From: Nitrospinaceae bacterium
Lineage (GTDB): Bacteria > Nitrospinota > Nitrospinia > Nitrospinales > VA-1
Direction: 5' to 3'
Length of the DNA: 64,000 bases
Assembly (NCBI GenBank): GCA_029261595.1
Contig: JAJDAZ010000010.1
Location: forward strand, 68,152-132,151
Below the pieces are notes generated by a model. It was not told the origin of the DNA, searched no databases, and worked only from the letters and a program-made list of their open reading frames with translations. Made by a program: the position numbers and the translations under genes. This document shows positions 15,048-36,691 of this stretch, one piece after another (position 1 is the first letter of the stretch; the number at the start of each line of letters is the position of its first letter).

Positions 15048-15048
15048 T

Positions 15049-18373: not shown

Positions 18374-18438
18374 TTGAAATAGGGCCTAAGAGGTTGTGAT
18401 GAACGAATAAAAATTGTACGCGCACATTTAAACCATTT

Positions 18439-19488
18439 ATGGGTAACACACCAAATTTAAAAGCACCGTTGGACTACATTCATGTCAATTCTCCTGAACC
18501 TCATGTTGCACGAACGAAAGAACTTTTAAAAAAATATCCTGAGATTCGGACCCTCTTCGGTCACACCCCTTCTACCGCCTGGTGGACGGTTGGCCTGGTT
18601 TCCCTCCAGTTTTTCCTGGCAATCACTCTTACAAACGCGGCATGGTGGGTGGTTATTTTGGCGGCATGGATTCTCGGGGCATTTATTGAACACGCTCTAT
18701 TTGTCATTATTCACGATTGCGCGCATAATCTGGCCTTCAAGCGGCCCTCCTGGAATAAGGTCCTTGGGATCATCGCCAACTTACCAGGTTTTTTTCCAGC
18801 AGCGATTGGGTTCCGTAATTTTCATTTGCTGCATCACCGAAATATGGGGGAACTGGGTTGGGACGCTGATATTCCCGGTCCTAAAGAAGCCGCCTGGATA
18901 GGAAAAAGCCCTTTTCGCAAAACCCTGAGCTTACTCTTCTTTACCGTAGTCGAAGGTCTCATTCGTCCTGCCCGTTTGAAGAAGGTCAATCTGCTGGATG
19001 CCTGGGGAGTGATTAATGGCATTGCTTCAATTGGCGCGGGCCTTTTGATCCTTTATTTTTTCGGCGGGTCTTCCTTTTTCTATCTGGTTCTATCCTGTAT
19101 GTTTGGAATAGGCCTGCACCCTCTTGGCGGTCGCTGGATTCAGGAGCATTATATATTTCGACCGGGCCAGGAAACCTACTCCTATTACGGTCCCTTAAAT
19201 AAACTGAGCTTCAACGTGGGTTATCATAATGAACATCACGATTTTATGATGGTTCCCTGGTCGCGACTACCCCAAATAAGAAAAATTGCTTCCGAATACT
19301 ATGATGACCTTTTGTATCACACCTCCTGGACGAAGGTCCTTTGGCAGTTTATTCTGGACCCAAATCTGACAGGATTCAGCCGCATGGTTCGCCAAGACCA
19401 TGAAGAAGGAAGCTCTGTAAAATTTTCCACCCAGGAAACCGATAAAATCAACGAGAGCAACCAAAACGCAGTTATTCCGGTCTCATAA
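18439..19488 (+). CDS. sphingolipid delta-4 desaturase (DEGS/Des1)-like protein
   Basis: His boxes HDCAHN, HLLHHR and HNEHHDF. '[25 protein letters not shown]' is nearly identical to my recollection of animal DEGS1 ('[25 protein letters not shown]'). The N-terminus '[12 protein letters not shown]' matches the Lipid_DES N-terminal domain. Confidence 0.85.
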   Translation: [349 protein letters not shown]

Positions 19489-19493
19489 ATATA

Positions 19494-20522: not shown

Positions 20523-20583
20523 ATTCTAATAAATTACGAAACTCCCTGGACGAACCGCCAAATTCCGTCAGGGGGAAAAATGT

Positions 20584-21363
20584 TTACTCAGAAATTTGAG
20601 TTTGACAGGAAGTTGGTTTGGGAGGCGCATCATCTATGGGAATTCCTGATAATTTGGCAACCCACGGGAATCGGCTGATTTCTTCCCCGGTATACCCAAG
20701 ATTAAAAACCGTTGGGCTCAAGGGCACTTGCTTTGACTTTACTAGATAAGTTCCTAATACTCTGTCCGGGAAGGCGCTCGTGATACCGTAATTGCCGTGT
20801 TCATTGTGAAAGTGATGAGACAAATGCAGTTTCTTGAGGGTACGAAAAAATTTCGACTTTGGTGTATAGTTCAAGTGCTCGACACAATGGCAATATTCAT
20901 AAAAGCATGTGTACCACAATCCGGCGGCTAAAGCTCCAGCACAACCGCTGGCCCCGCCAAGCCCCAGCCAGCCCAATGGGGCGGCAATAATAAACACCGT
21001 GGGAATGATCGTGTAGGGCGCGGCAAATAAAACGCTCAGGTCATTCGGGTTTTGGTGGTGATCGAAGTGAATCCGTTTCCACAAAGCCGATGTGAACTGG
21101 AATTGGTAAAGTAAACGTGAGTGCAGTAAATACTGATGTATAAAATATTCTGAAAAAGGATATATAATACAACAGCCGAAAATCGCTACGATCAGCGACC
21201 AGAGGTTTTGGGCCCAATAAATGGATAAACCGGCAAAAAGGCTTCCCAATAGAAAATATAATTGGATCGATGGGTAAGAAATATAGGCTTTAAAAAATTC
21301 TCGAAAGCTTAATTTGTCGAGAAATTTTTCACTTTCCTTCCAATATCCGGATCCAAAAAACAT
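20584..21363 (-). CDS. FA2H/Scs7-like fatty-acid (sphingolipid alpha-) hydroxylase family protein, no cytochrome b5 domain
   Basis: His motifs align one-to-one with recalled human FA2H. EYFIHQYLLH aligns with EYVLHRFLFH. HFDHHQNP aligns with HGQHHKSP. YEYCHCVEH aligns with YDMTHYYLH. LKKLHLSHHFHNEHGNYGIT aligns with [20 protein letters not shown]. Confidence 0.75.
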   Translation of the reverse strand: MFFGSGYWKESEKFLDKLSFREFFKAYISYPSIQLYFLLGSLFAGLSIYWAQNLWSLIVAIFGCCIIYPFSEYFIHQYLLHSRLLYQFQFTSALWKRIHFDHHQNPNDLSVLFAAPYTIIPTVFIIAAPLGWLGLGGASGCAGALAAGLWYTCFYEYCHCVEHLNYTPKSKFFRTLKKLHLSHHFHNEHGNYGITSAFPDRVLGTYLVKSKQVPLSPTVFNLGYTGEEISRFPWVAKLSGIPIDDAPPKPTSCQTQISE

Positions 21364-21587: not shown

Positions 21588-21665
21588 TACGGGTCAGTTT
21601 AATGTTCTCTGCCCATTACTCTGGAATTTTTATTGCAGATTATAGATCAAGTTAAAGAAACAAGA

Positions 21666-22643
21666 ATGGAGCCACCCCTGGAAGAAGATTCAACAAACAC
21701 GATTTTGGTGAAACAATGGCTTCAATGGTGGAAAAGCCGCTCTGTCCTGCAAAAACTTTTGCCGCTTGTCATTTTGGCAGGTTTCTGGGGACTACACATA
21801 AGCATGGGCGGCTTTCGGCCTGACCATCTAGCAGTCGCACTCCTTGTATTCGCTTATTATGGAGGACCCCGCACGCAATGCTATTACAGGTTTTTTCTCC
21901 CCTTTACATTATTCATGGTCCTGTATGACAGCCAGGGTTATTACGCGGAATTGATTCGGGGGAAAGTCCATGTTGCCGAACCTTATCAGTTCGACCTGAC
22001 GTTTTTTGGCATTGAAACCTCCGAGGGAAGGCTGTTACCCAGCCAATGGTTGCAAAAACATACCCATCCGGCCATAGATGTCGTCACCAGTTTTGGCTAT
22101 ATAATATTCGTCCCGGTATGTTTTGGAGTGGCGACTTATTTCCGTTTTTTTTTGGTTTCGGGAAAAAATTCCTCTCTGGAAAAAGAAACGATTATAACCA
22201 AGGCCCATGCCTTGATGTGGGGCATGTGCTGGTTAAACATCCTGTCCTGTTCCACTTATTACTGGTATCCCGCCGCCCCTCCCTGGTATGTCGAAATATA
22301 TGGATTGGGACCCGCACAATTGGACGCAGCCCCCAGCGCGGCAGGAGCTCTACGACTCGATGAGTTTTTCGGCATTGACTTCGTATCCAGTTTCTATTCA
22401 AGAGTCCCAAATGTGTTTGGCGCCATTCCATCAGGCCATGTCGCCTTCCCTCTGCTGTGTTTGTATTTCGCTTTTAAGTTATCGTCACTGCGTGTTTTCT
22501 GTCTGTTGTATTTTTTACTGGTTTGCTTTTCCGCAGTGTATCTAAATCATCACTATGTTCTGGATGTCCTTTGGGGAATCACCTATGCTCTGATTGTGGC
22601 GTGGTTGATGGACAGGTTTTACAAGTCAGGTTCGCAAGAATAA
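21666..22643 (+). CDS. Aur1/Ipt1-type (PAP2_3) inositolphosphotransferase-like protein, i.e. IPC-synthase / sphingomyelin-synthase-like
   Basis: 'YPAAPPWYVEIYGLG ... GALRLDEFFGI ... FGAIPSGHVAFP ... YLNHHYVLDVLWG' parallels recalled yeast Aur1 'FPAAPPWYKILYGL ... GLARIDKLLGI ... FGAFPSLHSGCA ... YLTHHYFVDLMAG'. PAP2 C2 (SGH) and C3 (HxxxD) motifs are present. The ATG at 21666 is preferred over the TTG at 21633. Confidence 0.75.
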   Translation: MEPPLEEDSTNTILVKQWLQWWKSRSVLQKLLPLVILAGFWGLHISMGGFRPDHLAVALLVFAYYGGPRTQCYYRFFLPFTLFMVLYDSQGYYAELIRGKVHVAEPYQFDLTFFGIETSEGRLLPSQWLQKHTHPAIDVVTSFGYIIFVPVCFGVATYFRFFLVSGKNSSLEKETIITKAHALMWGMCWLNILSCSTYYWYPAAPPWYVEIYGLGPAQLDAAPSAAGALRLDEFFGIDFVSSFYSRVPNVFGAIPSGHVAFPLLCLYFAFKLSSLRVFCLLYFLLVCFSAVYLNHHYVLDVLWGITYALIVAWLMDRFYKSGSQE

Positions 22644-22686: not shown

Positions 22687-24273
22687 ATGCCGTTAATTAT
22701 AGGTCCTGGCGGGTGGAAAACAATCGTGTCTGGAGTCCCCAATAAATTGATGAAACTACTGGAGTCGAGATTCAGTTTTCGTTTTCTTTGGATGGCCGGT
22801 GTCATCGCATTGGGCGCGTCGCTGTTTCTCATCTTCTGGTTCTGGCGGGATGCCATTCCCACTGGAAATACCAGCGGAGTGTGGGCCGCTATTGCCAACG
22901 ACTTTGCTGAAGGGGTGCTTTACCGTCCTGTTTTCGATGAGTCCGGTTATGGTGGAACCCGCTACATGCCGCTTTTTTTCGTGCTCTACGGCCTGCTCAT
23001 TTCCTTTTTTAATGATCCGGTCACGGCGGGGGTGTCGTTATCTCTCACCGCCATGATCTTTCTTGACCTTGGCATTTACTTTTTGCTACGGGAAATGGGG
23101 GTCCCAAAATCAATCGCCATTCCCCTGACCTTTCTGGCTCACACATCTTTATCCTTTCAAAAGTTGACTCTGGAAACCAAGGGGGATTTCTTTGCGGCGG
23201 CCATGAATGTCTGGGGCATCCTGTTAGCTCTCAAACATCTGCGGACCCACTCCTGGGCTTTGTTGACCTTGAGCGCCGGCTTCTTTTTAGCGGCGATATT
23301 CACTAAATTCACCACCATCGGCGGATTGGCGGTGGTCACTCTACTTTTTCTGATCCGGAAAAAATATTCCTCCGCCATTTTCCTTGTCGGGCTGATTGGA
23401 GTCTCCACCTTGACCCTGCTTTGGGGAGTCAATGAGATCAGCGAGGGAAGAGCCCTCGCGGCTTTTCAAGCTTGCGCTCTGGGCGGATTCAATTTTGACT
23501 ACGCGATGAAAACCCCACTCTGGTTTCTAACCGTCACCATTCAGGACCCGTTCTTCTTTGCCATGATGTGTCTTGGGATTTATCTCATGACGAAAATAAA
23601 GGCCGAGCAATGGAAATCCTTCGTCCCTCTTTATTTCGCCTTCACTCTGGCTTCGACGTTCGCTATTTTTTCCTCACCGGGAACCGACAGCAATCACCTG
23701 ATCGATTTGCATGTCACCTGTATTTTGTTGATGGCGATTCAGTTCAAGAAAGAGGAGCGGTTTTCAAAAATGTACAATTTTTGTTTTATATTCATAATTG
23801 CCGGCAACCTGTTCATGGCGATCCCCGGAACCCTTTCCATAAAAGATCATCTTGAACTCAAAGGAAGACCGACGCGGGCCACCGTCCAGGCTATCCAGGA
23901 GGAACTGGGCCCGCAGATAAAAAATCTGCTCAGCGAAAATCCACTGGTCCCTCTGCTGATGGGTCAGCGTCCCATCGTTATGGACGCGTTCAGCCTGAGG
24001 CTCATGGCTCAAAAGTCCCCTGAAGTGCAGGCTGATTTCACTCAGAAAATCGAAAATCATTTTTTTGAGGCCATTGTTTTACAGGACTGGTCCGGCGCTC
24101 CCCGGGACCAACTGGAGGATGCCATGGAAAAGCATTCTTCCCTGGGCGTGGATCGATTTTACGGCGAAGTTCATTTCCCACCGGGCTTTTTGGACCTGAT
24201 GAAAAAACATTATTTTCTGAGCTTCGTCAAAAGACCTTATGTGATTTATGAGCCCATAAAACCTTCCCCATAA
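22687..24273 (+). CDS. GT-C fold membrane glycosyltransferase (ArnT/PMT GT39-like)
   Basis: 528 aa with 10 or more TM helices. An acidic motif sits in the first external loop (VFDESGYGGTRYMPLFF). A C-terminal soluble domain of about 150 aa is present. An alternative ATG lies at 22750. Confidence 0.55.
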   Translation: MPLIIGPGGWKTIVSGVPNKLMKLLESRFSFRFLWMAGVIALGASLFLIFWFWRDAIPTGNTSGVWAAIANDFAEGVLYRPVFDESGYGGTRYMPLFFVLYGLLISFFNDPVTAGVSLSLTAMIFLDLGIYFLLREMGVPKSIAIPLTFLAHTSLSFQKLTLETKGDFFAAAMNVWGILLALKHLRTHSWALLTLSAGFFLAAIFTKFTTIGGLAVVTLLFLIRKKYSSAIFLVGLIGVSTLTLLWGVNEISEGRALAAFQACALGGFNFDYAMKTPLWFLTVTIQDPFFFAMMCLGIYLMTKIKAEQWKSFVPLYFAFTLASTFAIFSSPGTDSNHLIDLHVTCILLMAIQFKKEERFSKMYNFCFIFIIAGNLFMAIPGTLSIKDHLELKGRPTRATVQAIQEELGPQIKNLLSENPLVPLLMGQRPIVMDAFSLRLMAQKSPEVQADFTQKIENHFFEAIVLQDWSGAPRDQLEDAMEKHSSLGVDRFYGEVHFPPGFLDLMKKHYFLSFVKRPYVIYEPIKPSP

Positions 24274-24313
24274 AACCCTTTTAATATCAATTGGTTATAG
24301 AGCTTATTATAAA

Positions 24314-24341
24314 GTGACTTTTTCAGGGCGGATAGTATAAT
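24314..24341 (+). promoter_or_regulatory. candidate sigma70-type promoter for the polyprenol-P-mannose synthase gene
   Basis: GTGACT (24314-24319), a 16-nt spacer, then a perfect TATAAT (24336-24341). It lies 36 nt upstream of the ATG at 24378. Confidence 0.35.
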
Positions 24342-24377
24342 GACTGCCTGCTGTTCACAGAAATCCATTATTTTTTT

Positions 24378-25217
24378 ATGCGGAAGAATATGTCGTTGAC
24401 CACCACCTCCAAACGAAACATTGAACGCACTCTGGTCATCCTTCCGACCTACAACGAAGCCGATTCATTGATAAAAGTGGTGGATGCGGTACTGAGTTTG
24501 CCTGAGAATCTGGATATTCTGGTGGTGGATGATTCCTCGCCCGATGGCACCGCGGACCTCGCAAAAAATCATTCCGCTTTTGATGATCGGCTTTTTCTGT
24601 TACAGCGGCCTGGCAAACAGGGGCTGGCCACAGCTTACAAGGAAGGGTTCCAATGGGGGTTGAATAAGGGATACGACGTGTGCATGGAAATGGACAGCGA
24701 CCTTTCACACGACCCGACGGATATTTCCCGGCTGTTGCAGACGATTACAGAGGGAGCCGACATTGCCATTGGCTCGCGATATTTGAATGGCATCAGCGTC
24801 ATCAACTGGCCGCTCAGCCGGTTGCTGGTCAGCATCGGCGCCGGTATTTATACGCGGTGGGTGTCCGGTCTGCCGCTGTCCGACCCGACGGGGGGATTCA
24901 AAGCAATCCACCGGGATGTGATCGAACATCTGGACTGGAATAAGGTGAAAAGCGATGGCTACGGTTTTCAGATCGAAGTGAGTTTTTTTGCTTTTAAAAA
25001 GGGTTTTCTGATTAAAGAGATCCCTATCATTTTTACCGAGCGCCGCGATGGGGAATCCAAGTTTTCCCTGTCGATCGCGATCGAGGCCGCTTTTAGAGTT
25101 CTGCAACTAGGGTGTCTGGAACGCTTTCAAAGTTCCAAAAAAATTTCCTCCCCCTCTTACAATAGAAACCTGTACGAAGCCCCTCCAGGCGAGCCCGCTA
25201 CGCGGGAGGAGGGGTAG
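24378..25217 (+). CDS. polyprenol/dolichol-phosphate mannose synthase (Dpm1/Ppm1-like GT2)
   Basis: LVILPTYNEADSL ... ILVVDDSSPDGTADLA ... RPGKQGLATAYKEGF ... MDSDLSHDP ... GSRY ... GGFKA ... DGYGFQIE. This is a full Dpm1-type motif set. Confidence 0.9.
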   Translation: MRKNMSLTTTSKRNIERTLVILPTYNEADSLIKVVDAVLSLPENLDILVVDDSSPDGTADLAKNHSAFDDRLFLLQRPGKQGLATAYKEGFQWGLNKGYDVCMEMDSDLSHDPTDISRLLQTITEGADIAIGSRYLNGISVINWPLSRLLVSIGAGIYTRWVSGLPLSDPTGGFKAIHRDVIEHLDWNKVKSDGYGFQIEVSFFAFKKGFLIKEIPIIFTERRDGESKFSLSIAIEAAFRVLQLGCLERFQSSKKISSPSYNRNLYEAPPGEPATREEG

Positions 25218-25259
25218 CTTCCTCACGAGCCTCGGAGAATTTCCGAAGGAAAATTCTGG

Positions 25260-26816
25260 ATGAAAAATTCGGCCTCAAGTAGAATTCCACCCGCCAAAAA
25301 TCCGCCGAACGTCAATGCTGGGCCCAGCGACCAGCTGGCCAGCCCCCAGGCGGGTTGGTGGCATTATAAATCCATCCTTTTAGCTTTGGCCCTGCATGCA
25401 TTTTTGTTTCTTTGGCTGTTCCAGTTGGGTTATTCGGCGGAGGAATGGAAGCGCATCAATATAATCGCCAAATCTCCCTCCGTGAAGCCCATGGCGAAAA
25501 CCATCATGCAGGAGCACGGACCTTTCGGTTTTGTGGTCTGGTACTACAGTACCCACTTTGAGGCGCAACTTTATTACCGATACGCCAAATTGACTCTGTA
25601 CGGGGATGTGGATTATTGGACAAGAAACAATAACCTGCAAATCAACAGTGAACGCCCCTTACCTTATCGGGATATCCCTATCGAATACCAACCGGGAGCA
25701 CTCCTAGCAATCACATTGCCGGCTTTATTTGCCGACAATCTTAGAGAGTATAGATTCTGGCTGGCCACCTGGTTCGGGTTCCTTTATATGTTAAACCTTT
25801 TCCTGGGTATCAAACTCGTGACCGGGGGGTCGCCCTCTGTCGGCCAGGCGAAACGTTTGCTCTGGTGGTCTTTCGCCTTTTTAGTCCTTTTGGGCGGAAT
25901 CGTCACCTCCCGGTTCGACCACGTCGTGGTGACCAGCATTTTGCTTTCCACTCTCGTGCTCATCCACGCACTTAAGAAAAGGGGAAAGAAATCTTTACTG
26001 TGGTTTGGTTTTTTTGGGGTGGTCACGTCAATGGGCGTGTTGACCAAAATCGTGCCCGGTCTCATTCTGATTTCAGTGTTGCTGTTTTTGCTCGTACAAC
26101 ACAAAAATACGCCACGCTGGGCGGAAGCCATGGCTTCGATTGCGGGATTGGGAGCGGGACTGGTTTTTCTGAATGCTGTGTTTTATGGTATTTTCGGTCC
26201 CGGTTACTGGGAAAGCTTCACTTATCATATGGACCGGGGAGTCCAACAGGAATCTGCCTATGCCGGGATAATGTTGCTGGCTCAATTGGTGGGCATTGGC
26301 ACCGTGACCCATGACGTTTCCTTTGGGTCGTCCAATGTGATCTTCGCGCTCGCCGACCAGGTCAAACTCATTTCCCCCTTTCTATTTATTGGAATCGTGG
26401 CTGTTCTTGTTCGGAGGGTTTGGCGCCAGCCTCAAGCGGACGCCAAGGCGGAAGAGTCGGGGCATTTTGTTTGCAGTCAAATCTTATTGCTGACCCTGAT
26501 CCTGCTTCTTGCGTTCATGCTCACCAATAAGGTATTTTCCCCACAATACATGATTTGGGTCGGGCCGTTGCTCGCCATCTTGGTGGCTGTCCACAAAAAC
26601 ATGTGGAAAATCGGCATACTATTTTTAGTCGCGACCACCATGACCCAGGGAATTTTCCCTCAGCTTTATAAACTCATGAATCTATTTCACCCGGCCATGG
26701 TGGTTCTTTTGAACCTGCGCAATGCTTTGCTCATCGTGATTCTGATAATGCTGATTCGGGATCTGCCAGTTTTGTTGGAAAAGAATCACTCCTCCCGGCT
26801 TTCCCCGGAAAGCTGA
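25260..26816 (+). CDS. polytopic membrane protein, possible GT-C glycosyltransferase (DUF2029/GT87, PimE-like)
   Basis: 518 aa with 11 or more TM helices. The first loop 'LYGDVDYW...PYRDIPIEYQPGALLAITLPALF' resembles the GT87 signature (D...Y....pY..f.YPP). The assignment is tentative. Confidence 0.45.
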   Translation: MKNSASSRIPPAKNPPNVNAGPSDQLASPQAGWWHYKSILLALALHAFLFLWLFQLGYSAEEWKRINIIAKSPSVKPMAKTIMQEHGPFGFVVWYYSTHFEAQLYYRYAKLTLYGDVDYWTRNNNLQINSERPLPYRDIPIEYQPGALLAITLPALFADNLREYRFWLATWFGFLYMLNLFLGIKLVTGGSPSVGQAKRLLWWSFAFLVLLGGIVTSRFDHVVVTSILLSTLVLIHALKKRGKKSLLWFGFFGVVTSMGVLTKIVPGLILISVLLFLLVQHKNTPRWAEAMASIAGLGAGLVFLNAVFYGIFGPGYWESFTYHMDRGVQQESAYAGIMLLAQLVGIGTVTHDVSFGSSNVIFALADQVKLISPFLFIGIVAVLVRRVWRQPQADAKAEESGHFVCSQILLLTLILLLAFMLTNKVFSPQYMIWVGPLLAILVAVHKNMWKIGILFLVATTMTQGIFPQLYKLMNLFHPAMVVLLNLRNALLIVILIMLIRDLPVLLEKNHSSRLSPES

Positions 26817-27442
26817 TTTTTGACATAAATGATCCTTTGCACCGCGGTGTAATTGCTGAGAACGGCAATAATCAATATGGTTCCTATCATAATGTATTGG
26901 CCCACAACAGGAATGCCCGCAAGCAGGGACCCCAGAATTATCAGGGCGATGCGTTCGGGCCGTTGCATCCACCCGACCTTGCAATCGACGCCCAAACCTT
27001 CGGCGCGGGCGCGGGTGTAGCTGACCATGAACGAACCGGACAAAGCCAGAATAATAATTAGAACCATGACGGACCCAAGAAACGACTCCGGATCATTCGC
27101 AGACAAGCGGGAAAAATGCCAGGCCAATCCCAGGAAAACAAACAGCTCGCTGAACCGGTCGATGGCGCTGTCCAGAAAAGCTCCAAACGAGGAAATTCTC
27201 CCAGTCAGCCTGGCCATTTGACCGTCCAGAACATCACAGGTTCCCGCCAGAATCAGGACTGCCCCGGCGCAGAAGAAGGCGCCGTTTGCGTAAATCAGCC
27301 CGGCGATCATACTCAGCGACAAACCCACGAGGGACAAGGCATTGGGGCTCACGCCCAGGCCCGAAAGAAAACTGCAAAAAGGAGCCATCGCCCGGACAAA
27401 GCCTTCCTTGATCTTTTCGCTCAATAGGGAATATTCCGGCAT
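26786..27442 (-). CDS. CDP-alcohol phosphatidyltransferase, PgsA1/AIPS-like (possible phosphatidylinositol-phosphate synthase)
   Basis: Canonical D-G-x2-A-R-x8-G-x3-D-x3-D motif (DVLDGQMARLTGRISSFGAFLDSAIDRFSE). 'SYTRARAEGLGVDCKVGWMQRPERIALIILG' parallels recalled M. tuberculosis PgsA1 'SYIKARAEASGLRGDGGFIERPERLIIVLTG'. ATG at 27442 (TTG at 27448). The 3' end overlaps the convergent upstream gene by 31 nt. Confidence 0.9.
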   Translation of the reverse strand: MPEYSLLSEKIKEGFVRAMAPFCSFLSGLGVSPNALSLVGLSLSMIAGLIYANGAFFCAGAVLILAGTCDVLDGQMARLTGRISSFGAFLDSAIDRFSELFVFLGLAWHFSRLSANDPESFLGSVMVLIIILALSGSFMVSYTRARAEGLGVDCKVGWMQRPERIALIILGSLLAGIPVVGQYIMIGTILIIAVLSNYTAVQRIIYVKNQLSGESREE

Positions 27443-27490
27443 CCGCAATCAACCTTGGAATCCGATGAAAGCGCGGTTCGCGCTTCCCTC

Positions 27491-27652: not shown

Positions 27653-30600
27653 TCAGGAGTTTTCCTCATCCGGCTCCTCTTCGTCGTCCTCCTGGTTTTT
27701 AATTTCCTCCAGTAACCAGGGGACCATATGGTCGATACTGGGTCCACCCAGAAAGCGCACCACGGGAACGGTGATTTGTAAATCCGTTTCAATCCTGACA
27801 ATCAACTCCATTGCCATTAAGGAATCCAGCCCCAGATCGGCGAGCGGGAGATCCATCTCAAGTTTGGAGGGAGCGAGTCTCAATACCTTGGCGATCGACT
27901 CTTTAAGATGTTCGGCAAGAATCTGCGGTCGCTCATCCGGGAGTGCGGCTAAAAGTTTGGGCCGGATGAGTTCATCGCCTTCCCCATCACCTGCACTTTC
28001 ACTCTGGGCGCCATCCCCCTGCACATAGGAAAACCTGGCAGGGTTCGAGCCCGACCGGCTCAAGGAGAGGAGTTTCTTCCAGTCCACCGGAAAGACCCCG
28101 ATCTGTACCGGATTTTGATGCATCACCCGGCCAAGCATTTCCACCGCCTGCCGGGACGACAGACTCATCAGACCTTGATTCTCCATGCTTTTGATCAATC
28201 CTTGTTGCCGGGCGGCGACTCCCACACCGGATAATGGCCCCCAGTCAATCACCTGCCCGGAGAGACCCTGGGCGCGGCGATACCGGGCCAACGATTCCAG
28301 GAACGCATTGGCGGCGACGTAGTTTGCCTGACCCGGATTGCCCATCACGTTTGCCACCGAGGAAAACAGGGTGAAAAAGTCCAACTGTTTGTCCTGAGTC
28401 TGCTGGTGCAGGTTCCAGGCGCCCTGAACTTTCGGACCCATGACTCGTTTTAGCCGTTGCGGGGTCAGATGAATCAAAAGACCGTCGTCGAGCACCGCCG
28501 CCGCATGATGGATGCCCTTAAGTGGTGGCATGCTGGATTCGATCTCTCCCAACACACGGGTCACATCTTCCTGCAAAGAAACATCGCCCCGAACCACCTG
28601 CACCACCGCTCCCGTTTCTTCCATCCGGGCGATGGCAGTCTTGGCTTCTATCGATGGTGTTTCACTGCGGCCCATGAGTGCCAGATGCCGCGCTCCCTGC
28701 TGAACCATCCACTCGGCAATCGCCAGGCCAAAACCACCCAGTCCTCCGGTGATCAGATATGAAGCCTCCCGAGAAAACTTCATGGAAGCCTCTTCGTGTC
28801 GGATGATTTTCAGATCAGGTTCTTCCAGGGATAAAACCACCTTCCCCATGTGCCTGCCCTGGGCCATGGTGCGAAAGGCACTCACTGCATTGGAAATTGG
28901 GAAAATTCTATGTGGAAGTGGATGGAGTGATCCTTCTTCCATATGTCGCATGATTTCTATAAATATAGCGCGGAACTCATTATTCAGGGACTTGAAGCCT
29001 TCTTTGATTTCGACCATGGTGATGAAGGAAATTCCCTTCAAAAAGGGCCGCAAGCCAATCTTATTATTTTCATAGATATCGCGTTTGCCGATTTCCAGAA
29101 AACGGCCGAGCGGTTTCAAAATTTCAATGCTCTTGAAAATAAACTTGCCCGCCAGCGAGTTCAAAACCAGGTCAACGCCTTCACCCTGAGTTTGTTGCAT
29201 AATTTGCTCTGCGAAGGCCAGGGACCGCGAATCAAAAATATGCTCCACTCCCAGGTCGCGGAGGAAACCTCTTTTTTCGTCATTGCCCGCAGTGGCGAAA
29301 ACCTGGGCACCGGCCAATTGGGCAATCTGCACCGCCGCCATCCCCACTCCACCGGAGGCGGCATGGATCAGAACCCTTTCCCCTTTTTGCATTTTACCCG
29401 CCGAGTGCAGCATGTACCAGGCGGTTAAAAAAGTCACCGGAATGGTGGCCGCATCGGAAAATCCGATCTTGGGAGGTTTGTGAACCGTGGCAAACGTCGG
29501 TGCCAACGTATAAGAACCGAAGCACCCTCCCCCTGCAAGGGCCGCCACTTCGTCGCCCACCTTAAAATCCGTCACGCCTTCGCCCACGGCACTCACCACG
29601 CCCGCGCACTCCAATCCCAGAGTCTCCCAGGTGTTATCGACACCTTCCAACTCTCCCGGAAGCAAGCCCATGCCAATCATCACATCGCGAAAATTAAGAC
29701 CCGCCGCAAATACCCTGATTTCCAACTCCCCCGGACCGGGCTTCGAACGACTCACAGATCTGAGCTGGAAATTTTCCAGGATTCCGGGAGCGCCTATATC
29801 CATCACAAACGCGGGAGGTTCCTCATTATTCTCCTGAATCAAACTATCGACACAGGTTTCTTCGGGTTCAGGGCGATGCAGACGATAGACAAATCTCCGA
29901 TCCTGACGATAGGCAACTTCTTCTTCCGCATCTTCCTGCCATAATTCTTCGAACAGGGCGCGGGCCGGAGGGTCCCCTGACTCAGGATCAAGGTCCACCA
30001 GCTTGCACTTGAAATTGGAATGCTCGGACTGGATCACCCGGCCAATTCCCCAGGCAGGTGCCTGGGCCACGGAAATATTTTTTTCCTGGGAGCGCACCGA
30101 CTGCCCCCCCTGGGTGATGATAAAAAGCCGAGGTGTTTTGGACCACTTGGCATTGGCCAGTTCGTTGACGAGATGAATCGCGCTCATACCGCCTACCGCT
30201 TCCGCCTGCTGGAGAGAGTCGGGAGATAAATCTCCTGTTTCCGGCAAGTCCAGATTCCATAAGTGAACAATGCCGCGCAAGGCCGGTGTTTTCTTGCGCA
30301 CAAAATGGATCAGGTCTCCCATATCTTCCAGGGACTCGGGACGAATCTGGATCGGGCCGTCTTCATCTGCTTTAAATATTTTCCCTGGAGTCACCAGAAA
30401 AGGATTTTCGCCAAAGTTTTTTAATGATTCGGCCAGGGCCTGTCCTGTGCCTTTGCCGTCACTGAATATTATCCAACTGCCCTTTTTACCGGGTTTGGGT
30501 GTTTTAATTTCTTCTGAGGAATCCTCAACGTAGACTTTTGGACCTCTTGCGACAAAAAACGTTTGCAAGGAATGGGAACGCTCTTTGGAACCTGCCCATT

Positions 30601-33600
30601 TCGACACGTTTTCAAAGCCTGCGCCCTGCAACTCTCTCGAAACATCACTGCCGTCTATCAATGGGAGGGCCGGCACTTTTTCCGCTCCGGTATCGACTTC
30701 ACAAGACCCGAGGATCAACCTCAACCAGTTTGAAGTTGAGGTCCAGTCCAACTCCAGCAGGAGACCCCGGGATGCAAGCAACTCCAAAAGATTCCGCGCA
30801 ACTTTTTGAGGTTCTTCTGTCCCAAAGTTTAAATGCGACCCGAGGATCAAATCAAAAGAATGAGGAATAAACTCCTGCGTGGCTGGAGAAACGTTTAGAT
30901 CCAGCGTTTGAAACTCGACGAATGAAAATTCGCGCAGTTTTTGCGTGGCTTTTTCAAGCCCTGCCTCGGAAGATTCCGTATGAATGTATTCCACCCGGTC
31001 CTCGGGGCAGTGGCGAAGAAAGGCAGGGGCCATCGCTCTCCCGGTCACGCCCCCTATTCCCAGCACCCTTAACTTTCTGCCTTCCGGCAAATGACCGAGC
31101 AGTGAAGAAACCACTTTTTGCGCCAGCGAATTATAAATCTGCGAACTCAATGCGCTCTGCTGGAGTCGATCAAAAATCGCATCCTGTTCCAGAAAATTTG
31201 CTTGCAGTCCTTCGCTTTCGCCTTTAAGGATGCCCGCAAGGTTTTCCCCCGCAATCCGTAATAAATTGAGTTCGCCTAAAAATGCAGGAAATTCGCCGAT
31301 CAGCGATTTCCATAGGGTCTGCGGATTATCAATTTTTGCGGGAAGGGAACCCATCTGCCACTCGGAACCTTCCTTCTTTAAAATTCCTTCGTTTTTAAAA
31401 ATACAAAAACAACTCTCCAGATACGCGGAGTGTTTGGGGACCAATTGGAACTGCTCGATAAAAGACGCGGTGGAAAACCCGGTCAGCGAATCAAACTCAG
31501 GAGCGAGATTTTTTAAAGCACTCAGCACATAAGCCGCACCCAGGCGATTGAATCGGGGCTCGATGGAATTATAAAAATCGGCCAAATGGAGGGCCTCGGT
31601 CAAACCCTCCATCTCCTTTTTCAGGGAGGATACGATTTGATCGGGTGTTGGGAGAAAGGCGGCAGAACGGCATTGCCTTTCACCTACCTCTTCAACACAA
31701 GGTTCCCAACGCCACTGATACAGCCAGTCATCCGGGTTCAGCAGGTCCCGCCCCCGGGATGGATTCAAGGCTCGAAAATGAAGCCCCTGGCACTCGACCC
31801 AGACTTTCCCCGAGTCATCGAACATCTTGATGTCCACCACCGCCTGACTGCTGTCAAATTTCACCGCCTGCACGTGGACCCAAAGAGGACTTTCGGGCGA
31901 GCCATGAAATCGAACCCGGTCCGCCGAGATCGGTAGGAAAAGTTTTTTTGTGAGCGCATCCACGTCCAAAGCCAATAACGCGGAAACCTGAAACGCCGCA
32001 TCCAGAATGGCGGGATGGATCTGATACCGCTTCGCATTTAGCCCAAGTGCTTTGGGACTTTTAAGCAATGCCAAAGCCTCTCCATCTCCGCGCCAGGATT
32101 TGTCGATCCCCTGAAACGCAGGACCATAGTCCAATCCCATTTTTCGGAAGGTTTCATACAGTTTATCCGACAACACTTCATTTACGCATCGGCTCTTAAT
32201 GTTTTCCAGATCGATTGTTTCGGGATCACCCTGGTTAAATGGATCGCCCAGTGTTCCACTGGCATGCAAGGTCCAGGTCTGATTGGTCCGGTCGGAAAGA
32301 CTGTGGATTTTGAAGGACGCATCGATGGGGTCGTGGGTCATCTGGGTTTTTAGACCCCGGTTTTTTGGAACGACCAACGCATTATGAAACTCGATCGATT
32401 CCAGAACACATGAAACGTCTTTGTTGACCTGTTTGGCCATGGCCAGAGCCGACTCGACAAACCCTGCGCCTGGGAAAATGAGGATTCCCTTGACCGCATG
32501 ATCGCCAAGATAGGTCAACTCGCGCTTGTCGATTCGGGTTTGCCAGTGGCAGGATGAAGATTCCATCGCCCATCCAAGCAAAGGATGTACATCGGGGGCC
32601 AACGGGTCGAACCCTTTCTCTTCTCTCTCATGCCAATGGCGCTCCCTTTGCCAGGGATAGTACGGCAATGAAACGCAATGCCCACCATGCGGAAAAATCG
32701 GATTCCAATCAATCGATCGCCCCAGGCTGTAAAGGTTTCCCAGCGAATTCACCATCACTTTGCGGTCGTCCTCTTTGTGGTTTAAAGAAGGCAGAACCGT
32801 TCCCTCGCGTTTTAAATGGGAAAGGCATTCGGAGATATTGGCTCCCAAAACGGGGTGCGGGCTCAATTCCAAAAACGTGGTGTACCCATCGTTGACCAGT
32901 TCTTCAGTCGCTTTATAAAAGCGGACGGGGTTCCTGACATTGCCCCACCAGTAATCGGCATCCAATTGATCTCCGCCCTCTAGTTTTCCGCTTACGGTGG
33001 AATAAAAGGGAATTGAACTTGACTGGCACTGCAGGCCATTCAAGGACTCCACCAACCCCTGACGGATGGAATCCATTTGATGACTATGAAAGGCGTAATT
33101 GACTTTCAGGTAGCGACAGAAAACTTCCTGTTGCTGAAGGGGTTCGATCATTTTTTCCAGAGCTTCGGGATCTCCTGAAACGGTGACGGATTTGGGACTG
33201 TTCACCGCCGCCAGGGAGATTTCATTTTCCCGGCCCTTGAGCGCTTCAGCGATTTTCCCTTCAGGATAACCGACGACCGCCATCTTCCCCTTGCCTGCCA
33301 TTTTGTGAAGCCAGCGCCCGCGATGATAAACAACCCGAACCGCCTCTTCCAGGGAATAAATCCCCGCCACATAAGCCGCCGCCGCCTCCCCGATACTGTG
33401 CCCTATGACGGCAGAAGGTTCGATGCCCCACGAGCGCCATAAATCGGCCAGAGCCACCTGAAGAGAAAAAAGTGCGGGCTGGGTAATATGAGTTTCATTG
33501 ATTTTGGATTTGTTTTCATCCGCCATCAATTCTTCCCACAAAGACCAGTCTGCATGGCGACTGAACAGTTCGTCGCAACGCTTGATCACCGCGCGAAATA

Positions 33601-35353
33601 CCGGTTCCTGTTCCAGAAGCTTTCGGCCCATTCCCCACCATTGCGGCCCCTGCCCGGAAAAAACGAAAGCGATTCTGGGGTTTTCAATTTTGACCTTTTT
33701 TTCACTTGGCTTGATTCCCGTGGCCAGACCGCTGGATTTTTTTTCACTGATTTTTTTTCCGGTGGACAAGCCGGTATGCTTTTCATTATTTAAAAAGGCC
33801 TGTAGCCCATCCATAAAATCTTGAACGGAAGTGCCCGTCACTGCAAGTCGATGATCGTGATGGCTTCTTCTGAGGGATGCGGTGTAGCAGACATCATTCA
33901 GGTCGCGTTGAATCCAGTTATCTTTTCGGGAAAAAAATTCGATATAAGATGCGGCAAAATCTTTCAGCGCATCCTGACTGCGGGCCGACAGGGGCAGGCA
34001 ATATGACTGGGAATCTTTGGAAGATGATTCCGGACTCTCAGGCTCGGTCGTGACCGGGGATTCTTTTAAAATGACGTTTGCGTTGGTGCCACCGAAGCCA
34101 AAAGAATTGACCCCTGCGAGGGCCGGTTCGGTTCTTTTGGGCCAGGGGACCCGGTTTTTGGGAACCTGCAATTGCAGTTTCTCAAAATTTATTTCAGGGT
34201 TGGGTTGATTAAAATGGAGATTGGGCGGGATTTCCTTATGCTTCAGAGAAAGGGCCGCTTTCATCAAACCGGCGATTCCCGAGGCCGACTCCAAATGACC
34301 GATATTGGTTTTCACGGAACCTATGAAACAGTTGTCCTCTGCAGGACGGTCCTCGGCCAGAACCGCTCCCAAGGCATTGGCTTCAATGGGGTCGCCAATC
34401 GGTGTGCCGGTGCCGTGAGCTTCCATGTACTGAATCTGGTGGGCTGAAATCCCGGCATTTTTACAACCTTCTAAAAACAGCGCTTTCTGCGATTCCCCGT
34501 TTGGAACCGGCATGGCCAGAGTTTGACCGTCTTGATTGGAGGTCGTCGAAAGAATGAGCGCATAGATCGGATCGTTGTCTTCAATCGCTTTTTTTACCGG
34601 CTTTAATAGTGCGATTCCGGCCCCTTCTCCCCGAACATAGCCTTTTCCCGCCGCATCGAAAGACCGGCACCGGCCATCGGGAGACAGCATCCCCCCTTTG
34701 CCAAGGGTGATGGTGACTTCCGGGGTCAACATGGCATTGACGCCTCCGGCCACCGCCATGCTGGATTCGCCATTCCAGATACTCTGGCAGGCCTGATGAG
34801 CCGCCACCAGCGCCGAGGAGCAGGCCGTATCCACCACAAAACTTGGCCCCTTAAAATCAAAGAAATAAGAAATGCGATTGGCCGCTACACTCTGTGCCAC
34901 CCCGGTTCCGGTATGGCCATCGACGCAATGCAGGTCGAGTCTGATGAGATCCCTGTAGTCCGATCCGGAAATACCAAGGAAGACCCCGACCGGCGTCCCG
35001 GCAAGACGGTCTGCTGTCTGGCCGCCGTCTTCTAAAGCTTGCCACACGCATTCCAGGAGGATGCGTTGCTGGGGGTCCATTTGATTGGCTTCCCTGGGGG
35101 AAATGCCAAAAAAACGGGCGTCGAACATTTCGATAGAATCGATGAACCCACCCCACCGGGAAACGGTTTTTCCTGGAGCTTTGGGATTGGGACTGTAATA
35201 GGTTTCTGCATTCCATCGGTCCGGCGGAACTTCTATAATGGCGTCTTTCCCCTGACGCAACAGGTCCCAGTATTCCTGTGGGCTATTGGCGCCACCGGGA
35301 AACCGGCAGCCCAATCCAACAATGGCTATGGGTTCATTTCGGAGGGCACTCAT
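27653..35353 (-). CDS. FAS-like fully reducing type I polyketide synthase, KS-AT-DH-(MT-like)-psiKR-ER-KR-ACP, no TE/R/C release domain
   Basis: 2566 aa. KS aa 6-430 (nt 34064-35338): DTACSS C178, EAHGTGT, NIGHLE. AT aa 560-860 (nt 32774-33676): GHSIGE S653, YAFHS. DH aa 920-1195 (nt 31769-32596): H952 in LGDHAVKGILIFP. MT-like aa 1240-1600 (nt 30554-31636): VLGIGGVTG, FDLILGSHLNFGT. ER aa 1870-2178 (nt 28820-29746): LIHAASGGVGMAA. KR aa 2195-2375 (nt 28229-28771): ITGGLGGFG, Y2345. ACP aa 2465-2545 (nt 27719-27961): LGLDSL S2511. Acidic C-terminal tail. Confidence 0.95.
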   Translation of the reverse strand: MSALRNEPIAIVGLGCRFPGGANSPQEYWDLLRQGKDAIIEVPPDRWNAETYYSPNPKAPGKTVSRWGGFIDSIEMFDARFFGISPREANQMDPQQRILLECVWQALEDGGQTADRLAGTPVGVFLGISGSDYRDLIRLDLHCVDGHTGTGVAQSVAANRISYFFDFKGPSFVVDTACSSALVAAHQACQSIWNGESSMAVAGGVNAMLTPEVTITLGKGGMLSPDGRCRSFDAAGKGYVRGEGAGIALLKPVKKAIEDNDPIYALILSTTSNQDGQTLAMPVPNGESQKALFLEGCKNAGISAHQIQYMEAHGTGTPIGDPIEANALGAVLAEDRPAEDNCFIGSVKTNIGHLESASGIAGLMKAALSLKHKEIPPNLHFNQPNPEINFEKLQLQVPKNRVPWPKRTEPALAGVNSFGFGGTNANVILKESPVTTEPESPESSSKDSQSYCLPLSARSQDALKDFAASYIEFFSRKDNWIQRDLNDVCYTASLRRSHHDHRLAVTGTSVQDFMDGLQAFLNNEKHTGLSTGKKISEKKSSGLATGIKPSEKKVKIENPRIAFVFSGQGPQWWGMGRKLLEQEPVFRAVIKRCDELFSRHADWSLWEELMADENKSKINETHITQPALFSLQVALADLWRSWGIEPSAVIGHSIGEAAAAYVAGIYSLEEAVRVVYHRGRWLHKMAGKGKMAVVGYPEGKIAEALKGRENEISLAAVNSPKSVTVSGDPEALEKMIEPLQQQEVFCRYLKVNYAFHSHQMDSIRQGLVESLNGLQCQSSSIPFYSTVSGKLEGGDQLDADYWWGNVRNPVRFYKATEELVNDGYTTFLELSPHPVLGANISECLSHLKREGTVLPSLNHKEDDRKVMVNSLGNLYSLGRSIDWNPIFPHGGHCVSLPYYPWQRERHWHEREEKGFDPLAPDVHPLLGWAMESSSCHWQTRIDKRELTYLGDHAVKGILIFPGAGFVESALAMAKQVNKDVSCVLESIEFHNALVVPKNRGLKTQMTHDPIDASFKIHSLSDRTNQTWTLHASGTLGDPFNQGDPETIDLENIKSRCVNEVLSDKLYETFRKMGLDYGPAFQGIDKSWRGDGEALALLKSPKALGLNAKRYQIHPAILDAAFQVSALLALDVDALTKKLFLPISADRVRFHGSPESPLWVHVQAVKFDSSQAVVDIKMFDDSGKVWVECQGLHFRALNPSRGRDLLNPDDWLYQWRWEPCVEEVGERQCRSAAFLPTPDQIVSSLKKEMEGLTEALHLADFYNSIEPRFNRLGAAYVLSALKNLAPEFDSLTGFSTASFIEQFQLVPKHSAYLESCFCIFKNEGILKKEGSEWQMGSLPAKIDNPQTLWKSLIGEFPAFLGELNLLRIAGENLAGILKGESEGLQANFLEQDAIFDRLQQSALSSQIYNSLAQKVVSSLLGHLPEGRKLRVLGIGGVTGRAMAPAFLRHCPEDRVEYIHTESSEAGLEKATQKLREFSFVEFQTLDLNVSPATQEFIPHSFDLILGSHLNFGTEEPQKVARNLLELLASRGLLLELDWTSTSNWLRLILGSCEVDTGAEKVPALPLIDGSDVSRELQGAGFENVSKWAGSKERSHSLQTFFVARGPKVYVEDSSEEIKTPKPGKKGSWIIFSDGKGTGQALAESLKNFGENPFLVTPGKIFKADEDGPIQIRPESLEDMGDLIHFVRKKTPALRGIVHLWNLDLPETGDLSPDSLQQAEAVGGMSAIHLVNELANAKWSKTPRLFIITQGGQSVRSQEKNISVAQAPAWGIGRVIQSEHSNFKCKLVDLDPESGDPPARALFEELWQEDAEEEVAYRQDRRFVYRLHRPEPEETCVDSLIQENNEEPPAFVMDIGAPGILENFQLRSVSRSKPGPGELEIRVFAAGLNFRDVMIGMGLLPGELEGVDNTWETLGLECAGVVSAVGEGVTDFKVGDEVAALAGGGCFGSYTLAPTFATVHKPPKIGFSDAATIPVTFLTAWYMLHSAGKMQKGERVLIHAASGGVGMAAVQIAQLAGAQVFATAGNDEKRGFLRDLGVEHIFDSRSLAFAEQIMQQTQGEGVDLVLNSLAGKFIFKSIEILKPLGRFLEIGKRDIYENNKIGLRPFLKGISFITMVEIKEGFKSLNNEFRAIFIEIMRHMEEGSLHPLPHRIFPISNAVSAFRTMAQGRHMGKVVLSLEEPDLKIIRHEEASMKFSREASYLITGGLGGFGLAIAEWMVQQGARHLALMGRSETPSIEAKTAIARMEETGAVVQVVRGDVSLQEDVTRVLGEIESSMPPLKGIHHAAAVLDDGLLIHLTPQRLKRVMGPKVQGAWNLHQQTQDKQLDFFTLFSSVANVMGNPGQANYVAANAFLESLARYRRAQGLSGQVIDWGPLSGVGVAARQQGLIKSMENQGLMSLSSRQAVEMLGRVMHQNPVQIGVFPVDWKKLLSLSRSGSNPARFSYVQGDGAQSESAGDGEGDELIRPKLLAALPDERPQILAEHLKESIAKVLRLAPSKLEMDLPLADLGLDSLMAMELIVRIETDLQITVPVVRFLGGPSIDHMVPWLLEEIKNQEDDEEEPDEENS

Positions 35354-35497
35354 TTAATTTGTTGGGCTATTGCTTTTATTGGCTTCTTGAGAGAAAGTTC
35401 TACCCTAAGACCTTATTATAGTCGCGGTTGAGGGGGCTATTCTAAATTGTCGCACATTGGGAAGCAAATAATATATTGTTCGCCGCTACCGCACTGT

Positions 35498-35514
35498 ATG
35501 GATTAAAAATCCAT
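35498..35514. promoter_or_regulatory. 17-bp palindrome in the PKS/GNAT divergent promoter region (candidate operator)
   Basis: ATGGATT-AAA-AATCCAT, i.e. perfect 7-bp arms. It lies 41 nt upstream of the GNAT ATG (35555) and 145 nt upstream of the PKS ATG (35353). Confidence 0.3.
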
Positions 35515-35554
35515 TATTTTCAATCGTTTTGATATTTTCTCAGGACCCGTCTTC

Positions 35555-36691
35555 ATGCTGATCGTAAAACAGGTTAACGGCAATAAAAAGGGGATGGCTG
35601 ATTTCCTTAAACTCCCCTATTCGCTTTACAAGAATGACAAAAACTGGTGCCCGCAACTAAGGTATGAAAGAAAAATATTCTTCAGCGACAAAAATCCCTT
35701 CATGAAACACAGCGAGGTCGGTTTTTTCGTCGCTTACCAGGATAATCAACCGGTCGGGCGGGTCACCGCGCATCGAGACGATGTTTACGATGATTTCTAT
35801 AAAATCCGGCAAGGGTTTTTTGGTTTCTATGAAGCGATTGAAAAAGACGAGGTTGCCGGGAAGCTGATGCACTCCTGTGAAGAGTGGATTAAAAGCCGGG
35901 GAATGGCTTCGTTAATCGGGCCCTGCAATTTTACCACCAACCACGAGGTGGGATTATTGACCCAGGGTTTTAACAACCCTCCCGTAATCATGATGCCCTA
36001 TACCAAACCCTATTATCCGGATCAGCTATATAAATTGGGTTACCAAAAAGAAAAGGAGCTCCTTGCTTTCTGGGTCGATAGAAACACCGAGGTGCCAGAA
36101 CTATTTACCGTCATGGCCAAGCGGGTGGCGCGGGAACTCGACGGGAATTTTGAAATCAGAACGATTGATATTGGGAAACTGAAATCGGAATTGAAAATTA
36201 TTTTAGATATCTACAACGAGGCGTGGAACAAAAACTGGGGATTCGTTCCCATGACGGAAGAAGAAATCGATGTCATGGCCCAGCAGCTCAAACATTTCGC
36301 CTTCCCGGATTTTATTTATATTTTGTATAAAGATGATGAACCTACCGCGTTTTTGCTCGCCCTTCCAGATATCAACAATGCGTTGATCCAGATCAAATCG
36401 GGGAAACTTTTTCCCACCGGAATTTTCAAGCTTCTTGCCCCGCAAAAATATTTCAAGACCGGAAGAGTCCTCCTGATGGGGGTGAAAAGCGCATTCCGGA
36501 ATCAGGGGCTCGATTTTCTGCTTTACCATCGCATGATGGAGGACATCATCACGAAAGCCCCGAAACAAATTCAGGGCATGGAGCTTTCCTGGATTCTTGA
36601 AGATAATCTCGTGATAATCAATATTCTAAAAACTTTGAATGCGGAACTCTATAAGCGCTATGTCATTTTGAAAAAAACCCTCGACCCGTGA
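35555..36691 (+). CDS. tandem-GNAT-fold (NMT/FemX-like) acyltransferase family protein, function unknown
   Basis: 378 aa. 'GPCNFTTNHEVGLLTQGFNNPPVIMMPYTKPYYPDQLYKLGY' and the C-terminal 'ELSWILEDN' match a widespread uncharacterised ~380-aa GNAT family as I recall it. Confidence 0.6.
   Translation: MLIVKQVNGNKKGMADFLKLPYSLYKNDKNWCPQLRYERKIFFSDKNPFMKHSEVGFFVAYQDNQPVGRVTAHRDDVYDDFYKIRQGFFGFYEAIEKDEVAGKLMHSCEEWIKSRGMASLIGPCNFTTNHEVGLLTQGFNNPPVIMMPYTKPYYPDQLYKLGYQKEKELLAFWVDRNTEVPELFTVMAKRVARELDGNFEIRTIDIGKLKSELKIILDIYNEAWNKNWGFVPMTEEEIDVMAQQLKHFAFPDFIYILYKDDEPTAFLLALPDINNALIQIKSGKLFPTGIFKLLAPQKYFKTGRVLLMGVKSAFRNQGLDFLLYHRMMEDIITKAPKQIQGMELSWILEDNLVIINILKTLNAELYKRYVILKKTLDP

Follow-up and report, generated by a model that had tools for sequence, protein, structure and literature searches.

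Sphingolipids have long been considered rare in bacteria. A route to them that is fed by a polyketide synthase (PKS) was first shown in 2025, in a Pseudomonas and only for the long-chain base (PMC12134224). Here we analyse a 64,000-nucleotide stretch of DNA from a Nitrospinaceae bacterium (hereafter the window; positions 68,152 to 132,151 of contig JAJDAZ010000010.1, GenBank assembly GCA_029261595.1) that holds a type I PKS gene at 27653 to 35353 on the minus strand, next to the gene of a bacterial ceramide synthase (bCerS) family member. We propose, with a probability of roughly 0.4, that this PKS is an iterative, malonyl-only, fully reducing synthase that supplies an acyl chain to a Nitrospinaceae inositol-phosphoceramide (glyco)lipid, the chain being released by the bCerS-family protein. 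The broader statement, that the PKS is a supplier of sphingolipid acyl chains released in trans by either bCerS or an Spt, is probable, and release by the adjacent bCerS paralogue in particular is put forward tentatively.

In that work, the PfSgaAB system of Pseudomonas fluorescens MYb115 comprises an iterative type I PKS, SgaA, and an alpha-oxoamine synthase, SgaB, that make sphinganines, with SgaA proposed to work together with its Spt-type neighbour SgaB (Peters et al. 2025, PMC12134224). Compared by description only, SgaA is like the window PKS in being a monomodular PKS of the iterative type that is proposed as the acyl source of a bacterial sphingolipid. Unlike that two-gene cluster, in which the PKS and the Spt-type alpha-oxoamine synthase are described as adjacent, the Spt gene here is unlinked, and the neighbours of the PKS are instead a bCerS paralogue and inositol-phosphoceramide and glycosylation genes. 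With no neighbouring alpha-oxoamine synthase, the locus fails the adjacency that defines SgaAB, and its nearest outside relatives found here also differ, being cyanobacterial PKSs that bear a C-methyltransferase (cMT) domain. An initial annotation of this DNA had named, as a ground for its refutation, membership of an already characterised product class with the same neighbours, and this is partly the case: PKS-derived sphingolipids were described in that 2025 report, but with other neighbours. PKS-derived bacterial sphingolipids are thus already known; the pairing seen here is a different one, in that the PKS accompanies a bCerS paralogue and genes for inositol-phosphoceramide formation and glycosylation. 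In the searchable literature we found no description of a PKS–bCerS pairing or of Nitrospina sphingolipids.

The second described system is the Spt–bCerS–CerR pathway of Caulobacter and E. coli B (PMC9386255, PMC11087976), with which the present genome shares a homologous GNAT protein, Spt and CerR as well as the principle of a dedicated carrier. It differs in having no AcpR/AasR, in whose conceptual place stands a 2566-aa PKS with its own acyl carrier protein (ACP) domain; in having a bCerS of a separate paralogue clade, tied to an inositol-lipid cluster; and in the loss, throughout the window's genus, of the canonical bCerS gene next to Spt. The Bacteroides inositol-lipid genes are a further point of likeness, since a PAP2_3 protein of the window matches NF052609 (BT_1522-type phosphoinositol dihydroceramide synthase, E = 2.4e-39) and its CDP-alcohol phosphatidyltransferase (CDP-OH transferase) matches NF052561 (BT_1523-type PIP synthase, E = 3.1e-42), both below the curated cut-off. 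No PKS is known from the Bacteroides inositol-lipid cluster.

Mycocerosic acid synthase (MAS), the best solved-structure match of the window PKS (PDB 9D2Z, 5BP1 and 5BP4; 1128.8 bits), is an iterative lipid synthase that shares with it a ketosynthase (KS), acyltransferase (AT), dehydratase (DH), enoylreductase (ER), ketoreductase (KR) and ACP. Like the window PKS, MAS has no thioesterase (TE); it is unloaded by the trans-acting acyltransferase PapA5, and it uses methylmalonyl-CoA through a YASH-type AT. It differs from the window PKS in having no methyltransferase-like (MT-like) insert, and in place of phthiocerol a sphingoid base would accept the chain in the present case. Assignment to the following equivalog families was rejected: the scores were 1356 against a cut-off of 2400 for the Pks2/MAS type (NF041183), 782 against 2100 for Pks13 (NF040607) and far below the cut-off for PKS_plus_SDR, and the polyunsaturated fatty acid synthase PfaA (TIGR02813) scored 391.7 against 1010, with a single ACP and no Pfa-like neighbours at the locus. 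The closest homologues outside the Nitrospinota are cyanobacterial KS-AT-DH-cMT-ER-KR-ACP synthases of 44–47% full-length identity, with or without a TE. Two of the TE-less ones (e.g. P0167, P0169) are each followed by a nonribosomal peptide synthetase (NRPS) module (condensation, adenylation, peptidyl carrier and TE domains), so that an amide bond is made as the chain leaves the PKS. Unlike the window PKS, the cyanobacterial homologues keep the motifs ILEIGAGTG and LHAT and the AT motif VPYH, and they adjoin NRPS rather than sphingolipid genes.

The PKS gene and its parts, all on the minus strand of the window, are as follows.

27653–35353, minus strand: type I PKS gene, KS-AT-DH-pseudoMT-ER-KR-ACP, 2566 aa, a single open reading frame (ORF)
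34061–35335, minus strand: KS, residues 7–431, active site Cys175, His313 and His352 (Pfam and motif alignment)
33695–33763, minus strand: Lys/Ser-rich stretch of the KS-AT linker, TGKKISEKK (531) ... TGIKPSEKK (545) (alignment)
32765–33667, minus strand: AT, residues 563–863, GHSIGE at 651 and YAFH at 753 (Pfam and motif alignment)
31760–32587, minus strand: DH, residues 923–1198, motifs HPLLG and LDAAFQ (Pfam and motif alignment)
30602–31624, minus strand: pseudo-C-methyltransferase region, residues 1244–1584, HTH_51/Methyltransf_12 (Pfam and CurJ alignment)
28829–29788, minus strand: ER, residues 1856–2175, motif HAASGGVG (Pfam and motif alignment)
28229–28765, minus strand: KR, residues 2197–2375, TGGLGGFG, LDD and Tyr2345 (Pfam and motif alignment)
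27656–27910, minus strand: ACP (residues 2482–2544, LGLDSLMA) and acidic C-terminal tail (2549–2566) (Pfam and motif alignment)

The six domains KS, AT, DH, ER, KR and ACP lie in canonical order in one polypeptide, with Pfam scores far above the cut-offs, and the HTH_51/Methyltransf_12 region (residues 1244–1584) scores 30.9 bits, just above its cut-off of 30. The catalytic residues are intact, and all are kept in nine full-length orthologues of 53–76% identity: the Cys-His-His triad of the KS, the GHSIGE of the AT and the His of the DH, as well as the NADPH motif of the ER, the Tyr and LDD of the KR and the Ser of the ACP. Full-length orthologues of 53–79% identity occur in 8 other Nitrospinaceae genomes. 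By Pfam or NCBIfam, the PKS contains no TE, reductase (R), condensation, sulfotransferase or alpha-oxoamine synthase domain, and a cryptic release domain after the ACP was rejected, with about 20 residues left there and no Pfam or NCBIfam match among them. Those residues end in the acidic tail EEIKNQEDDEEEPDEENS (2549–2566); every orthologue likewise stops 20–45 residues after the ACP with an acidic tail, and none has a TE or R domain. The ACP is the best-conserved domain among the Nitrospinaceae orthologues, with a mean identity of 0.84. In all these respects the initial annotation, which had described a FAS/MAS-like single-module KS-AT-DH-MT-like-ER-KR-ACP protein that ends in an acidic tail about 20 residues past the ACP and has no off-loading domain, agrees with the domain models and with the MAS match. 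There is no loading module, as the KS already starts at residue 7, and the PKS is the sole type I PKS found on scanning the genome, a metagenome-assembled genome of 3.78 Mb that is 90.7% complete and for which absences are based on contiguous loci where possible. From the one module, the lack of a loading module and the lack of a second type I PKS in the genome, we infer that the enzyme works iteratively.

The AT motif YAFH, kept in 10 of 10 orthologues, had been viewed in the initial annotation as a hybrid of HAFH and YASH. The motif is present at residue 753, but we prefer to take it as malonyl-accepting: a YASH-to-YAFH mutation in DEBS AT6 admitted malonyl units (Del Vecchio 2003, as cited in PMC6090053), and GHSIGE, not GHSQGE, in combination with YAFH predicts malonyl extender units. 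The linker between the KS and the AT does contain the two Lys/Ser motifs previously reported as a duplication, but Tandem Repeats Finder calls no repeat there and only weak A-rich similarity is seen, and the duplication was rejected. The stretch belongs to an insert of about 19 residues that is confined to the closest PKS orthologues. The coding sequence of this Lys-rich insert (33695–33763, minus strand) contains two A8 runs, which are potential slippage sites.

Divergent from the PKS gene, across a spacer of 201 bp, lies the gene that we consider the candidate release partner.

35555–36691, plus strand: tandem-GNAT protein, 378 aa, bCerS/YghO-family paralogue (similarity, tree and neighbours)

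Over 370 of its 378 residues, this protein shares 37% identity with the YghO protein of E. coli BL21(DE3) (E = 6e-84). In the ceramide cluster of E. coli B, yghO is the 'aca' gene, whose product is named only as a putative acyl-CoA N-acyltransferase (PMC9386255). Homologues of about 40% identity are flanked by an Spt-like alpha-oxoamine synthase and a CerR-like epimerase in three other lineages, Calditrichota and Zixibacteria among them, and such trios also contain GNAT homologues in PKS-less Nitrospinota. Members of the family stand beside Spt and CerR at six of the loci compared (L005, L006, L007, L008, L011 and L015; L, G, g and C numbers are our working labels for loci, genomes, genera and contigs), and the window's copy instead adjoins the PKS. 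In a tree, the cluster-type GNAT proteins form a clade (56 rows, SH-aLRT 99) that nests among Spt-adjacent bCerS sequences and is separate from the canonical Nitrospinota bCerS (SH-aLRT 100). Judged by sequence, the window GNAT is a member of the bCerS family and a distinct, cluster-type paralogue within it, and we infer that it would N-acylate a sphingoid base. It is the only bCerS-family gene of the genome, in which Spt, CerR and an inositol-phosphoceramide (IPC) synthase-like gene are also present. The earlier suggestion of this divergent protein as a trans partner was thus a sensible one, with the difference that the protein belongs to the bCerS/YghO family and is no orphan.

On the other side of the PKS, the window carries further lipid genes.

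26786–27448, minus strand: CDP-alcohol phosphatidyltransferase, PIP-synthase-like (NF045883, 139.8 against 170; NF040950, 150 against 180)
22687–26816, plus strand: 528-aa membrane protein, Dpm1-like glycosyltransferase (GT) of type GT2, and PMT_2-like GT-C (glycosylation genes, kept in relatives)
21633–22643, plus strand: PAP2_3 protein, phosphoinositol-dihydroceramide (IPC) synthase-like (NF052609, below cut-off)
17465–21363, no single strand: fatty acid desaturase, Lipid_DES sphingolipid delta-4 desaturase, ER-like quinone oxidoreductase and fatty acid hydroxylase (lipid-tailoring genes)

By gene content, this neighbourhood, which includes two GT-C-like proteins and one GT2, is a conserved Nitrospinaceae sphingolipid/inositol-phosphoceramide-glycolipid cluster. 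The CDP-OH transferase gene lies 204 bp downstream of the PKS, and its best matches are PIP and archaetidylinositol-phosphate synthases. It too had been named as a possible release or acceptor enzyme; it is implausible as an acyl acceptor and would instead make the phospho-inositol donor lipid. Inositol-1-phosphate synthase domains occur in the genome as two PF01658 copies. An apparent absence of inositol-phosphate synthase, suggested by the negative PF07994 search, was rejected as a miss specific to that model.

To see how these genes are distributed, 120 Nitrospinota genomes were scanned. The cluster-type GNAT (60–82% identical to that of the window) is found in 11 of the 120, exactly those with a PAP2_3 orthologue, and the PKS in 9 of these 11, in genera g1, g4 and g7, and in no other genome of the set. 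Most Nitrospinaceae have an Spt–GNAT–CerR operon, the GNAT of which is only 33–39% identical to the window's protein. Genera g4, g7 and g13 have both bCerS paralogues; the window's genus (six genomes) and genome G049 have only the cluster type. The gene order is always GNAT <-> PKS -> CDP-OH transferase <- GT-C <- GT2 <- ... <- PAP2_3 (L002–L004), and in all three genera the PKS is inserted at an identical site, between the CDP-OH transferase and the cluster-type GNAT.

Under the reading that we favour, the ACP would be phosphopantetheinylated, possibly by the one Sfp-type phosphopantetheinyl transferase (PPTase) of the genome, and on this ACP the PKS would assemble an acyl chain that is long or very long. 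The adjacent bCerS paralogue would then remove the chain in trans, using acyl-S-ACP for the N-acylation of the Spt product (3-ketosphinganine or sphinganine), such that formation of the amide bond would be the release step. CerR, the IPC-synthase-like PAP2 protein, the GT2 and GT-C proteins, the hydroxylase and the delta-4 desaturase would complete the lipid. We favour the bCerS route because the PKS is inserted at a conserved site, because its nearest homologues set a precedent for amide formation and because the ACP is strongly conserved. The more speculative part of the proposal is that the saturated chain, whether long or very long, passes straight from the carrier domain of the PKS to the GNAT, which forms the ceramide amide bond with it. 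Besides AcpS, the genome encodes one Sfp-type PPTase candidate, a 233-aa ORF (C17:31207-31461), which likely activates the PKS ACP too. In the same region (C17:21900-31500), beside the PPTase, lie two NRPS-like ORFs of 1588 and 1435 aa, both of which contain an AMP-binding and a PP-binding domain.

Several observations weigh against release by bCerS. The characterised bCerS activity is reportedly one with acyl-CoA. Two genomes, G007 and G049, carry the same cluster and GNAT paralogue but no PKS; in them the CDP-OH transferase and GNAT genes are divergent and adjacent, with 49 and 559 bp between them, and tblastn found no PKS remnants at this junction of the PKS-less clusters. As the cluster is intact in these genomes, the PKS is an accessory module placed at the CDP-OH/GNAT junction, and it follows that the GNAT does not need the PKS and that their adjacency stems in part from an older linkage between GNAT and cluster. 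This linkage predates or outlives the PKS, which weakens the argument from adjacency. The nesting of G049 between PKS-bearing genera in the GNAT tree hints at one PKS loss. Finally, a preference for dedicated acyl-ACP is known for Spt, not for bCerS (PMC9386255), and the one sphingolipid PKS that has been characterised is partnered by an Spt-type enzyme (PMC12134224).

These last points lead to the strongest rival, an SgaA-like arrangement in which the unlinked Spt (contig C68) would release the PKS-bound chain by decarboxylative Claisen condensation with serine, so that what the PKS sets would be the long-chain base instead of the N-acyl chain. The precedent for this route in the literature is the stronger of the two: PfSgaAB pairs an iterative type I PKS with an alpha-oxoamine synthase to make sphinganines (PMC12134224), and for rhodobacterial Spts a dedicated acyl-ACP is a better substrate than acyl-CoA (PMC9386255). 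The genome has an Spt orthologue that shares 37% identity with the active enzyme of E. coli B (its best NCBIfam match is Spt, at 472 bits against a cut-off of 640) and is encoded separately from Kbl and BioF. Because no AcpR/AasR-type carrier system was found in the genome, the ACP of the PKS is its only sphingolipid-linked carrier protein. The genomic setting, however, speaks for another partner. Spt lies on a different contig, where its partner gene is CerR and no PKS is adjacent; of 16 class I/II aminotransferase matches in the genome, none is on contig C10; the same Spt orthologue (69–84% identity) occurs in PKS-less genera, with no PKS-specific feature seen; and the PKS is set within the head-group/bCerS cluster rather than beside Spt. 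We regard release by Spt as plausible, but as somewhat less likely than release by bCerS.

Directly downstream of Spt lies the CerR candidate, which shares 50% identity with the CerR encoded in the operon of a Nitrospinaceae relative and 28% with the epimerase of E. coli. In the window's genome and in G044, CerR follows Spt directly and the canonical bCerS is missing (C68:69700-72300, L001:9707-12253; also L013:7092-9603), and the Spt–GNAT–CerR order is retained in other Nitrospinaceae (L008, L011).

A less likely explanation again is that the PKS is merely co-located with the cluster and its chain is destined elsewhere: it might be O-linked to the head group (inositol or glycan), enter a glycerolipid, or be set free by an unlinked hydrolase as a fatty acid or a derivative of one. 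The accessory status of the PKS, as seen in G007 and G049, would fit this, and the nearest outside relatives, cyanobacterial PKS-NRPS genes, suggest that it was acquired from a setting of secondary metabolism. The GC content of the PKS gene, 0.51–0.54 against 0.46–0.49 in the flanking lipid genes (2–5 points higher; window positions 28001–36000), points in the same direction and is weakly consistent with a foreign origin. Scans for promoters and terminators at both PKS flanks gave no matches. Against such a destination, the conserved block around the PKS contains no other acyltransferase, fatty acyl-AMP ligase (FAAL), thioesterase or NRPS partner, no PF00975 thioesterase was found in the genome, and the insertion site is the same in three genera. 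We consider this explanation improbable.

The third question concerns the MT-like region, which aligns to the C-methyltransferase (C-MT) of CurJ (5THY, E = 3e-35) and to 5MPT (E = 4.7e-21) and in which the motifs VLGIGGVTG, YIHTE and SHLNFGT, noted previously, are all located. In the CurJ C-MT, a His/Glu dyad is said to be catalytic. The box that reads NVLHAT in CurJ reads SHLNFGT in the PKS, with Phe in place of the catalytic His, and this His is absent from 10 of 10 orthologues, where F, Y, T, P or S replaces it; the partner Glu is Asp in this PKS and D, E or G among the orthologues. In motif I (VLGIGGVTG), Val replaces the second Gly of GxGxG, and the orthologues read ILEIGG(A/G)(A/G)GG. 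The MT core is the least conserved domain of the Nitrospinaceae PKSs, with a mean pairwise identity of 0.44 compared with 0.71–0.76 for the KS, AT, ER and KR; in the cyanobacterial homologues with canonical motifs it reaches 0.73, on par with the catalytic domains. Given the replacement of the catalytic His in all orthologues and the relaxed conservation, the domain is, on these alignments, a structural pseudo-MT, as the initial annotation had held, and with the His missing the PKS chain should be linear and saturated. An active domain with a methyl-branched, mycocerosate-like product is very improbable, since the clear fold homology to CurJ, and the several orthologues with an ILEIGG-type motif I that match more methyltransferase Pfam models, are outweighed by the lost His, the variable Glu, the Val in motif I, the relaxed conservation and the malonyl-type AT motifs.

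Nitrospinaceae are important marine nitrite oxidisers. If the chain is indeed passed to bCerS, the locus would represent a new, undescribed logic of PKS off-loading and an undescribed bacterial way to eukaryote-like glycosyl-inositol-phosphoceramides without elongases in these organisms, and it would account for unusual, possibly very long, acyl chains in bacterial ceramides. This is of relevance to how marine lipid biomarkers are interpreted and to how sphingolipid chemistry of a eukaryote-like kind evolved in bacteria. Since relatives with and without the PKS have an otherwise identical cluster, nature provides a contrast by which the question can be tested directly.

Other lineages join different acyl-chain machinery to bCerS clusters. 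Locus L014 (GCA_054013415.1, 4062-11170) has a compact Spt-KS-ACP-CerR-Glyco_transf_21-GNAT arrangement, in which Glyco_transf_21 is the ceramide glucosyltransferase family; this cluster corresponds, in type-II style, to the arrangement with the PKS. A PAP2_3/GT-C/GT2/GNAT cluster without a PKS is present at L016. The window's genome also has a stand-alone KS and ACP pair at C14:37600-39140, within a run of minus-strand genes and distinct from the acpP-fabF pair on C26; it shares no more than 35% identity with the KS that is linked to Spt at L014.

Among the tailoring genes, the Lipid_DES delta-4 desaturase and a convergent PIG3-family quinone oxidoreductase (18439–20522) occur in the same 6 of the 120 genomes, all of them PKS-bearing, and may form a functional pair, for example in electron transfer or double-bond chemistry. 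The fatty acid hydroxylase (20584–21363) was rejected as a PKS-linked tailoring enzyme, as orthologues are also found in PKS-less genera (g9, g11, g13 and g17); within the window's genus it occurs in this genome only, and we read it as an enzyme that tailors sphingolipids in general. Genes for a GT4 glycosyltransferase and a membrane protein of the LPG_synthase_TM family (14043–16200) adjoin the cluster, as they do at L003 and L004, and may act in the same glycolipid pathway. At about 16.5 kb from the cluster lies a gene for an LptF/LptG-family permease (9920–11149), and in E. coli BL21 extra lptG and lptF genes directly follow the ceramide cluster (L019:4921-7067). This proximity may reflect a common export logic for outer-membrane sphingolipids.

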